Assembly (NCBI GenBank): GCA_963729605.1
Contig: CAVSNY010000007.1
Location: forward strand, 224,001 to 288,000
Reading direction: 5' to 3'
Source: an uncultured Gammaproteobacteria bacterium
GTDB taxonomy: Bacteria; Pseudomonadota; Gammaproteobacteria; DRLM01
Length of the DNA stretch: 64,000 nucleotides
The notes beneath the pieces were generated by a model, which was given only the letters and a program-made list of their open reading frames with translations, did not search any database and was not told where the DNA came from. Positions 22,808 through 24,733 of this stretch are shown here, piece by piece; the first letter of the stretch is position 1; the number at the start of each line of letters is the position of its first letter. The translations under genes were made by a program, and so were the position numbers.

Positions 22808-23623
22808 ATGCAAATATTAGTTACCCTGAAAGAATATCAGATCTTGCGCGTGGCCTTGCAAACCGGCGTGCCGCATGTCGAGTGTTCGCTGGACTTGGGC
22901 CGATCCATGACGCGCGTTGAGGTGGCCGATGAGGGCTGGTGTTGGCAAGGCCGATGGTTTCCCTATCTCGAGAGTTGTAACGACAGGACCATCTATTATT
23001 GGGATGGCGAGTCGTTTCAACCGGTGTCGCGTTACACCACGTCCTTGATCAAATTGGTGCCGACTGACTGGGGGGCGCCGACCTTCGAGATCGACGGCAT
23101 CAAAATGCTGCCCACGGCACAACTCTCTCCTTACACCGACGCCGAACGCAAGGTGGCGTTGATACAACCGCGCGGCAAGCTGATATTGGACACCTGCGGC
23201 GGCCTCGGTTATTTCGCCGCCTGGTGCGTGCGCGGCCTGGCCCGGCGGGTGCTGTCTTTTGAAAAGAATCCCGACGTGGTGTGGTTGCGGGATTTAAATC
23301 CCTGGTCGCCGAAGGTGGACGAGGTGTTGAGTTTGACGGTGGGCGATATCGTCGAGCAGATCGTCTCGCTGCCCGATGGTTCGGTCGATGCCATCTTGCA
23401 CGACCCGCCGCGTTTCGGCATCGCCGGCGAACTTTACTCGCAGGTCTTTTACAATCAGTTCGCCCGGGTGCTGCGTCGCAAAGGCAAACTGTTTCATTAC
23501 ACGGGTGCGCCCAACAAATTGACCAGCGGCCGCGACGTGCCCAACGAAGTGGCGAAACGTTTGCGCCGCGCCGGTTTCGTCACGGAGTTGAACGGCGACG
23601 GCGTGCTGGCGGTGAAAAGTTAA
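22808..23623 (+). CDS. SAM-dependent methyltransferase (COG2521-like)
   Basis: APTFEIDGIKM, ILDTCGGLGY, DAILHDPPRF, GKLFHYTG. Confidence 0.8.
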   Translation: MQILVTLKEYQILRVALQTGVPHVECSLDLGRSMTRVEVADEGWCWQGRWFPYLESCNDRTIYYWDGESFQPVSRYTTSLIKLVPTDWGAPTFEIDGIKMLPTAQLSPYTDAERKVALIQPRGKLILDTCGGLGYFAAWCVRGLARRVLSFEKNPDVVWLRDLNPWSPKVDEVLSLTVGDIVEQIVSLPDGSVDAILHDPPRFGIAGELYSQVFYNQFARVLRRKGKLFHYTGAPNKLTSGRDVPNEVAKRLRRAGFVTELNGDGVLAVKS

Positions 23624-23834
23624 GCCGCACTGGCGCCGCGGCGAAGTTATGCGGCCGATCACCGCCCGCGGGTTCACGGTCCTTTTTGAAAGATCGAGTG
23701 GCCCGGCACGCCGGCCTCGCTTGTTCGACATCGAAGAATCTTTCGAATACATCGCTTGTCCGCTCGTGGCGAAGGGCGAAGATGAAAGAAGTGTTCTGCG
23801 GAGTGAGGATGATCATCCGGGCGCCCTCACCCCT

Positions 23835-24347
23835 GCCCTCTCCCGCTCGCGGGAGAGGGAGGAATCCGTCACGCTGACCGTGGCGCCCGTGATATTGCCT
23901 CTCCCGCGCGCGAGGGAGGAATGATTTTGCGAGGTACGAGAAAATTACGGACCAGTCTCTCCCGCGCGCGCGGGAGGAATGGGATGGAATCATTGCGTGT
24001 GCAGGCCGGCGCTGTCTCTCCCGCTCGCGCGAGCGAGGAATGGTGGTGGTCGTTCCGTCCGTTTCGGGTCATGCGCCTCTCCCACTCGTGTGCGCGGGAG
24101 GAATAATGCAGCGGTTCGACAAGAACATTCATGCCGAGCCTCTCGCCCGCGGGAGAGGAGAGAAATCATCGCCCAGGCGGGCGTCGATTTTCCGCTGAGC
24201 CTCCGGCTCGCGGGAGAGAGGGAAGTTGATCGGTTCATCCCCACGCATGTGGGGAACGAGCCTCCCGCGTGCGGGAGAGAGAAGAAATTACTTCCGCAGC
24301 TTCATCATCAGTTCGAACGAGCCTCCGGCTCGCGGGAGAGAGGGAAT
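23835..24347. CRISPR. Orphan, degenerate CRISPR-like array: 9 palindromic repeats (26-31 nt) and 8 unique spacers (30-33 nt)
   Basis: Repeats at 23835-23865, 23897-23922, 23955-23980, 24014-24041, 24075-24104, 24136-24166, 24197-24226, 24258-24288 and 24319-24347. Approximate consensus G(A/T)(G)CCTCTCCCGCnCGCGGGAGAG..GGAAT. Period 57-63 bp. No cas gene in the window. Confidence 0.75.
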
Positions 24348-24463
24348 AATAATGCTCAGCCTGGTATTCCAGTGTTGCGTTAGGTTGCCCATCGTGGACG
24401 GGTTCCAGCTGGGATGCCCCGGCGTCGCTGGCCCGCGACGCCGATGCTGGGATACCATAACCC

Positions 24464-24733
24464 ATGGCCAGGGTCGTCTTCACCGATAACTTGCAGCGGC
24501 TCGTCGCTTGCCCGCCCGTGGAGACGGACGGCGGCAGCTTGCGCGAGGTGCTGGACGCGGCATTCCGGAAACATGCGCGGGTACGGACTTATGTGCTCGA
24601 CGAGCAAGGCGCCATTCGTAAACACGTCGCGGTGTTCATCGACGGCGTCCTGGTCCAAGATCGTCAAACCTTGACGGATCCGGTGTCGCCCACGGCGCAG
24701 GTGTACGTCATGCAAGCCTTGTCGGGAGGATGA
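24464..24733 (+). CDS. MoaD/ThiS ubiquitin-like protein
   Basis: 89-aa beta-grasp pattern, YVLDEQG..RKHV.VFIDG, C-terminal ALSGG. Confidence 0.88.
   Translation: MARVVFTDNLQRLVACPPVETDGGSLREVLDAAFRKHARVRTYVLDEQGAIRKHVAVFIDGVLVQDRQTLTDPVSPTAQVYVMQALSGG

Follow-up and report, generated by a model that had tools for sequence, protein, structure and literature searches.

The window analysed here, a 64,000-nucleotide (nt) stretch from the genome of an uncultured Gammaproteobacteria bacterium, carries between positions 23834 and 24347 of its forward strand nine palindromic direct repeats separated by eight unique spacers of 29–32 nt. We favour the explanation that this locus is an orphan, decaying mini-array, resembling a CRISPR (clusters of regularly interspaced short palindromic repeats) array, that probably arose by ectopic Cas1–Cas2 integration at a repetitive extragenic palindromic (REP)-like palindrome and took its seventh spacer from a type I-E CRISPR array. 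The first-pass annotation of the window had treated the locus as an ordinary CRISPR array, which it is not: the array is degenerate, derived from a REP-like element and without a cas partner. The window corresponds to G000:C7:224001-288000, G000 being the source assembly (7 contigs, 94.5% complete).

Spacer 7 (24226-24257, forward strand; 32 nt) consists of TTGAT followed by 27 nt of a type I-E repeat, CGGTTCATCCCCACGCATGTGGGGAAC (24231-24257), the usual sense orientation of which is the minus strand. This 27-mer has one match in the window at up to three mismatches, with no match in any of 100 shuffles, and it is single-copy in the 3,475,565-base, seven-contig assembly even at up to six substitutions. 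Its hairpin, TCCCCAC/GCAT/GTGGGGA, is present as the first-pass annotation described it, with seven pairs, a 4-nt loop and a folding energy of −12.8 to −13.1 kcal/mol (−12.8 on the minus strand); read on the minus strand, the stem–loop is followed by an intact 8-nt tail, ATGAACCG, the form expected of type I-E repeats. If the minus strand were transcribed, the fragment would be a structurally intact Cas6e substrate. It falls short of the full 29-nt length, covering 27 of the 29 repeat positions: the first two bases of the sense orientation are missing. These are the usual last two on the forward strand, AC in 1385 of the 2144 copies found in real arrays, and their place is taken by the GAG that opens repeat 8. 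The fragment sits in spacer register between repeat 7 (24197-24225) and repeat 8 (from 24258), as had been reported. Repeat 7, spacer 7 and repeat 8 hold the 61-bp period, which disfavours an ordinary insertion, since this would have broken it. Extra bases do precede the 27-mer, although they number five (TTGAT) rather than the four (TGAT) originally counted when repeat 7 is given a length of 29 nt with G as its final base. Because spacer 7 joins 5 nt of a neighbouring spacer to 27 nt of repeat and is exactly spacer-sized, our data support the earlier proposal that it is a captured piece of a real type I-E array, in the form of a spacer–repeat junction. In spacer 7 as in spacer 8, the final four bases are GAAC, with the GAG that opens the following repeat behind them (24254-24269 and 24315-24330).

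The assignment of the 27-mer to a canonical type I-E repeat is borne out by its distribution. In a scan of one genome per species, exact copies were found in at least 119 genome stretches from many bacterial phyla and from methanogenic archaea. Most of these stretches contain dozens of copies, with a maximum of 88 exact ones in a stretch of 8 kb. Of 2363 intervals in the arrays carrying the 27-mer, 2229 measure 61 bp, and Cas6e (PF08798) scored above the curated cut-off in all five tested genomes with such arrays (loci L016, L080, L017, L058 and L018). The 27-mer stands alone, with no second copy even at four mismatches, in 21 of the 119 listed stretches; several of these are next to an array of a different type, and some are located at a contig end. 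In unrelated genomes, lone exact copies (L045, L053, L054, L069, L092 and L122) immediately adjoin arrays with another kind of repeat (GTTTCAATCC... among others), and such recurrent copies could be remnants of collapsed type I-E arrays or regulatory solitary repeats. The 27-mer also occurs, as solitary copies or two-repeat mini-arrays, on seven IMG/VR stretches (six contig names; L152-L158), and an unannotated stretch of Klebsiella phage KP13-16 (OP617741.1:19368-19394) contains a 26/27 match. These viral copies are candidate RNA anti-CRISPRs or viral mini-arrays; according to PMC10651486, solitary repeat units on viruses and plasmids, two of them of type I-E, act as RNA anti-CRISPRs.

The bases in front of the 27-mer had been suggested as a possible match to the end of an adjacent spacer or leader. 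The 32-mer formed by TTGAT and the 27-mer occurs in 15 metagenome stretches, all within ordinary arrays of 17–134 exact repeats and none with REP-like context, and because a 5-nt flank is expected by chance, it names no single donor. Around spacer 7, 41 of 45 positions match a single metagenome array, whose sequence L137, L139 and L147 share; the match reaches into the flanking repeats and was taken as chance among about 3,650 repeat matches. Organisms with this type I-E repeat co-occur in the same samples as the locus, as indicated by the depth over the 27-mer (26–101, against about 3–24 on the flanks, in all four metagenome runs) and by a contig with three copies of it (X1 record 5). The proposal of self-acquisition from the lineage's own type I-E system is unsupported by the present data: there is no other copy of the 27-mer in the source genome, none at up to two mismatches in the 11 other genomes of the order, and no type I-E protein was detected, the outcome that the annotation itself had named as telling against this branch, although a system since lost is possible. 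Comparison of the resident spacers (296 + 185 + 26) with loci carrying type I-E arrays gave only chance matches of 16–21 nt. Both a foreign array and a formerly resident, since-lost array are plausible donors, the 27-mer being common in genomes, metagenome arrays and IMG/VR contigs.

The repeats around spacer 7 are of a different kind. They lie, all on the forward strand, at 23834-23865 (repeat 1), 23895-23922 (repeat 2), 23953-23980 (repeat 3), 24012-24041 (repeat 4), 24073-24104 (repeat 5), 24136-24166 (repeat 6), 24197-24225 (repeat 7), 24258-24288 (repeat 8) and 24319-24347 (repeat 9), with start-to-start periods of 57–63 bp that are exactly 61, 61 and 61 bp from repeat 6 to repeat 9. Repeat 1 is the closest copy to a dispersed REP-like palindrome, CCCTCTCCCGC..GCGGGAGAGGG, and forms a 10-bp stem (−21.4 kcal/mol). 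The repeats are not near-identical: pairwise identity ranges from 48 to 97%, and only repeats 7 and 9 are alike, matching save for the last base (G versus T), whereas repeat 8 differs from both at about seven positions and is nearest to repeat 6 (81%). Repeats 7 and 9 have lost the hairpin and fold no better than shuffles (z = +0.78). Regular spacing is nevertheless combined with unique spacers, which are mutually unrelated (mean pairwise score −6.86, against −7.05 for shuffled sequences, standard deviation 0.72) and have no other copy in the genome, where self-matches stay at chance level; one 25/27 match spans repeat 4 and spacer 4 at C7:906140 (E = 0.007). Unrelated, single-copy spacers argue against tandem duplication or mosaic repeat modules. 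We rejected a decayed type I-E array at the site, as no other unit resembles the 27-mer at 61-bp offsets. Over the array, Rfam at E ≤ 1 reported neither CRISPR-DR nor any other family, and Tandem Repeats Finder gave no rows.

In the dispersed REP-like element to which the array repeat traces back, the palindrome CCCTCTCCCGC..GCGGGAGAGGG lies between a left module, which ends in GGGCGCCCTCACCCC, and a right module, GGAATGACGC.TCAGTCCGG. In the window, the left module (23771-23833, forward strand, ending in ...GGGCGCCCTCACCCCTG) lies directly upstream of repeat 1, and a probable right module follows repeat 9 (24348-24375, forward strand; AATAATGCTCAGCCTGG.. against GGAATGACGCCTCAGTCCGG.. in single copies), an assignment that comes from by-eye comparison with C7:992280-992310, C4:41045-41075 and C6:157296-157340 and reflects weak similarity. 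Window positions 23771-23861 match G000:C6:157336-157427 (84%), C7:419186-419257 (88%) and, in the sister species G002, C136:1273-1353 (81%). Copies of the left module occur in G000 at C3:161955, C4:311709, C6:157415, C6:265613, C7:247813 and C7:419185. In G000, repeat 1 with about 60 nt of upstream sequence is matched 38 times, mostly in the repeat 1 segment, and G002 and G004 also contain many matches; 55 strict palindromes were counted, as befits a dispersed, many-copy intergenic palindrome, and related copies occur on megaplasmids of other Proteobacteria. At C6:157296-157415 and C7:992232-992310 a single palindrome stands between the same left and right modules, the state of an unexpanded seed.

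At three or more further loci in G000, the palindrome has expanded between the same modules into a direct array with unique linkers. Five repeats begin at C7:419185, five lie at C4:311709-311368 (periods of 60, 61, 60 and 61 bp) and a third such locus occupies C4:40690-41050. The first of these contains a 183-bp (three-unit) higher-order duplication within C7:419222-419520, so tandem duplication also acts on these arrays. A shared accessory gene beside the arrays was rejected: the neighbours are unrelated housekeeping genes for a sigma-54 regulator, a ZIP transporter, an ACT protein and RecQ. The locus orthologous to the C4:311 array in G002 (contig C136) has, between the same flanks, two 29-nt repeats around one 32-nt spacer, that is, a repeat-length duplication around a spacer-length insert. 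The five-repeat array of G000 shares the spacer next to the left module and has three more units. Palindrome pairs 35–65 nt apart number 25 in G000, with 61 as the commonest spacing, against 0–3 in each of the 11 relatives, and a three-palindrome pattern occurs in one of 401 genomes sampled from the class, G000 itself; the direct-array phenomenon is restricted to this genome. On Cupriavidus and Mitsuaria plasmids, REP-like doublets with a spacing of about 65 bp are inverted pairs, not direct arrays. The sole Y1_Tnp match in G000 is a single Y1-transposase gene at a contig start (C7:53-415), resembling a REP-associated tyrosine transposase (RAYT). The palindrome that comes after it, GGGTGCGTGGGACGCACCC, is a different one, so this gene is not an apparent mobiliser of the CTCTCCCGC palindrome family, and no RAYT gene flanked by the same palindrome was found in G000.

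The locus is real and variable in nature. We aligned contigs of four metagenome runs, from four studies, to window positions 23600-24600; no run contained half of the window's sampled words, and none of the runs listed was of RNA. Two contigs 98% identical to the window span repeat 7, spacer 7 and repeat 8: X1 record 4 (study P1; 23976-24280, four differences and one gap) and X3 record 21 (study P3; 24082-24293, three differences and one gap). Run X2, the flanks of which differ from the window by about 6–14%, contributes a contig that joins 24254 to 24316, skipping 61 bp to give repeat 7, spacer 7 and repeat 9, and a second contig in which a single base separates 24220 from 24345, so that 124 bp are skipped and spacers 7 and 8 are gone. 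The 61-bp deletion coincides with an 11–12-nt identity, GAACGAGCCTCC, to which the GAAC ends of spacers 7 and 8 and the following GAG give rise; chance, a processing preference or a longer true repeat may each account for it. The array passes down by vertical inheritance, and at the right end its number of units varies.

G000 has three true CRISPR–Cas loci and three Cas1 loci. One, at G000:C4:145125-171600, is a complete type I-F locus (Cas1, a Cas2/3 fusion and Csy1-4). Behind its genes, GTTCACTGCCGCGCAGGCAGCTTAGAAA recurs 297 times in an unusually long array, 285 of the 296 intervals having a 60-bp period; the system is the only one of type I-F among the 12 genomes of the order. Two further loci, C6:198743-213382 (about 157 + 31 repeats) and C7:612496-614352 (27 repeats), have 37-nt repeats and each adjoins Cas1, with two adjacent Cas1-like matches at C7:615204-616597. 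None of these resident repeats (one 28-nt type I-F repeat and two 37-nt types) resembles those around spacer 7, so no resident effector would be expected to load it. Family searches detected no Cas6e, Cse1, Cas7e, Cse2, type I-E Cas2 or type I-E-type Cas1 in G000, and neither Cas7e nor type I-E-type Cas1 above cut-off was found in any of the 12 genomes. The control E. coli genome was missed by PF08798, PF09481, PF09344, PF09707 and PF09485, with only Thermus detected, so the absence of type I-E proteins rests on imperfect searches, though PF08798 found Cas6e in five of five genomes with the 27-mer. Cas1 of any type is present in two of the 12 genomes, G000 and G001.

The locus has a chromosomal setting among housekeeping genes. 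It is flanked by a gene for an S-adenosylmethionine (SAM) methyltransferase-like protein (22808-23623) on one side and by ThiS-like (24464-24733), BNR-repeat protein and SelO genes on the other, with no mobile-element genes and no adjacent cas genes. In G002 the methyltransferase and ThiS-like genes are not adjacent, lying on contigs C100 and C95 with other neighbours, which places the array at a rearrangement junction specific to the species of G000. No promoter-like site was found within 23500-24600. A terminator-like hairpin on the minus strand at the end of the methyltransferase gene (23624-23642) is probably a chance feature, as is a sub-threshold Rfam match to Pseudomon-Rho at 23565-23640 (27.1 bits against a gathering threshold of 45; E = 0.31).

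Spacer 7 is the one spacer of the array for which a source was found, namely a CRISPR repeat. A phage search returned 13 weak records, the best non-repeat matches having E ≥ 0.7. Among the 40 plasmid matches listed of 212, all but one fell on the REP-like element or the type I-E repeat region; the remaining one, an 84% match to a tssH gene (E = 0.01), was taken as chance. Exact IMG/VR scans with spacers 2, 5 and 8 gave no matches, and no protospacer was found for the spacers of the C4:311 array, the exact and BLAST library searches being insensitive for an environmental organism.

How might such arrays have formed? Cas1–Cas2 integration is expected to leave a unique insert of 32 nt flanked by a 29-bp duplication, and this is the arrangement at the two-repeat locus of G002. 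We propose that a Cas1–Cas2 integrase would have inserted spacer-sized DNA beside a REP-like palindrome, duplicating about 29 bp at each event, so that the array would have originated by an off-target, or 'neo-CRISPR', route. Spacer 7 would be a prespacer cut from a spacer–repeat junction of a type I-E array, carried either on foreign DNA or in a type I-E module since gone from the genome. The array would then have been inherited vertically, with units lost or gained at its right end, and it probably has no present function. Two candidate integrases can be put forward. One is a type I-E-type module, now gone, to which the 61-bp period and the type I-E-derived spacer would point; the other is the intact and very active resident type I-F module, the only related one present, which makes 60-bp units. 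The spacer-plus-duplication geometry, together with reported neo-CRISPR arrays, leads us to read these loci as ectopic integration products. In E. coli, off-target integration has been reported to found neo-CRISPR arrays (Nivala et al. 2018, as cited in bioRxiv 10.1101/148544).

Several observations weigh against this explanation. The action of an integrase is read from the geometry of the products. Fresh duplicates should be identical, yet the repeats have diverged to as little as 48% identity; repeat 8, with its roughly seven differences, lies between the matching repeats 7 and 9, an order that simple stepwise duplication at neither end would yield, and the hairpin is already lost in those two repeats. 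Neither a type I-E gene nor a type I-E array was found in G000 or its 11 relatives, although a type I-E module is what would give 61-bp units; the type I-F Cas1 and Cas2/3 that are present serve a 60-bp array. No Cas1 was detected in G002, which has the two-repeat state, in an assembly only 75% complete. The REP-like doublets about 65 bp apart elsewhere, although inverted, indicate that a spacing near 60 bp is not unique to CRISPR integrases. Hints of polarity conflict: the left spacer shared by G000 and G002 and the variants that lack right-end units suggest growth at the right, whereas the unique G that ends repeat 7, giving AAG before spacer 7, suggests a leader on the left. Finally, as the other spacers have no protospacer, no protospacer-adjacent motif (PAM) can be read. 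A bolder form of the integration model, in which REP-like palindromes would be natural birthplaces of CRISPR arrays, seems to us less likely than not. In this form, a lost type I-E-type adaptation module would have integrated repeatedly into one element family, leaving arrays of 29 + 32 = 61 bp and a spacer from its own array, and the environmental variants with none, one or two extra right-end units would be snapshots of stepwise growth.

The diverged repeats, the conflicting polarity, the lack of detected Cas1 in G002 and the ~65-bp doublets make a Cas-independent process specific to REP-like elements a serious rival, although we consider it distinctly less probable than integration. Palindromes would then have inserted at a preferred distance, or been duplicated in tandem and decayed, and the type I-E fragment would have arrived by a short recombination or repair patch. 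Such a process would suit a degenerate repeat that belongs to a dispersed REP-like family with related elements in doublets on the plasmids of other bacteria, as well as the signs that tandem duplication operates at such loci: the 183-bp duplication at C7:419 and a 63-nt stretch repeated at C3:214404 and C3:214681. A patch would also be compatible with the 41/45 match to array L139, which includes 7 bases of microhomology on the repeat 8 side, but it must have replaced exactly 32 nt to keep the period. Nor does the process readily account for spacers that are no more alike than shuffled sequences and unique in the genome, or for the exact 29 + 32 + 29 arrangement in G002. The only Y1 transposase gene accompanies a different palindrome, and direct arrays occur in one of 401 class genomes despite how widespread the REP-like family is.

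The first-pass annotation had further suggested that the fragment could target a CRISPR locus or act as a solitary-repeat decoy for Cas6e in the manner of RNA anti-CRISPRs, and nothing we found supports either role. A function for the array or for spacer 7, as a Cas6e-binding decoy or as a guide against type I-E-array DNA, seems to us improbable. The complete 7-bp hairpin and 8-nt tail on the minus strand would suit a decoy, as would the solitary exact copies on IMG/VR contigs and the precedent of solitary units, two of type I-E among them, known as RNA anti-CRISPRs (PMC10651486). Spacer 7 has also been retained in diverged environmental strains, but this retention fits neutrality, the estimate for zero change in 27 nt at 7% divergence being about 0.14. 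Against a function stand the housekeeping context without mobile-element genes, the lack of a promoter-like site in 23500-24600, the lack of a detected Cas6e or other type I-E protein in the host, flanking repeats unlike the resident type I-F and 37-nt repeats, and the lost hairpins of the neighbouring repeats. Least probable of all, to the point of being very nearly dismissed, is an artefact in which a foreign type I-E array read was stitched into the contig, as the annotation had itself allowed. The assembly method is unknown, and organisms with the 27-mer co-occur in the metagenomes that contain the locus; however, contigs from two runs of two studies (X1/P1 and X3/P3) cross the junctions on both sides of spacer 7, a third run has the variant joining spacer 7 directly to repeat 9, and the fragment is exactly spacer-sized and in register. 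These independent contigs and variants exclude a chimeric misassembly.

Natural evidence for CRISPR integrases making new arrays at non-CRISPR sites is scarce; bioRxiv 10.1101/148544 speaks of circumstantial evidence in two species besides E. coli. Here, one seed element is found in single-copy, two-repeat (in a sister species), five-repeat and nine-repeat states. Two species differ in the number of units at one orthologous locus, populations vary at the array's right end, and the donor of one spacer was, unmistakably, a CRISPR array of a different type. How arrays originate from pre-existing palindromes, and what integrases need in a target site, thereby become directly testable questions. 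The locus also counsels caution, in that small degenerate arrays or their spacers should not be taken as working immunity or anti-CRISPR devices.

Compared with known systems, the locus shares with neo-CRISPR arrays its spacer-sized unique inserts and duplicated, repeat-sized genomic flanks, away from cas genes in a genome with Cas1–Cas2. It differs from them in having a dispersed REP-like palindrome as its seed, in recurring at several loci with up to nine units and strongly decayed repeats, in carrying one spacer that is itself a repeat of a CRISPR type missing from the genome, and in having only a candidate integrase. Shmakov et al. 2020 (CRISPR Journal) reportedly hold that 'isolated arrays' begin by off-target integration. 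Type I-E arrays of the ...CGGTTCATCCCCACGCATGTGGGGAAC(AC) family have the identical 27-mer and the 61-bp period of the last four units here, whereas our locus has one truncated copy in a spacer slot, unrelated flanking repeats and no detected type I-E cas genes. REP clusters usually take the form of inverted pairs, or of tandem copies joined by conserved linkers. As in REP elements and REP doublets forming hairpins (REPINs), repeat 1 and the left module belong to a dispersed family that also occurs on Proteobacteria plasmids, but the repeats here are direct, the 32-nt linkers are unique and the only Y1 transposase gene lies beside a different palindrome. The solitary repeat units that serve as RNA anti-CRISPRs (PMC10651486) likewise feature a lone repeat with an intact hairpin outside a matching array; a member of that class would be expected on a virus or plasmid, behind a promoter and with a host of the matching Cas type, whereas the fragment here is embedded as a spacer, with no mobile element, no promoter found and no matching Cas proteins detected. 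VIPR repeat arrays, which have 5-nt GGYNN units according to bioRxiv 10.64898/2026.10.15.759431, are unrelated. The texts returned, in part, by a literature search on REP elements, Cas1 and spacer integration do not describe REP-seeded arrays. The most fitting label for the locus is that of an orphan, neo-CRISPR-like array with a REP-like element as its seed and a spacer from a CRISPR repeat of another type.

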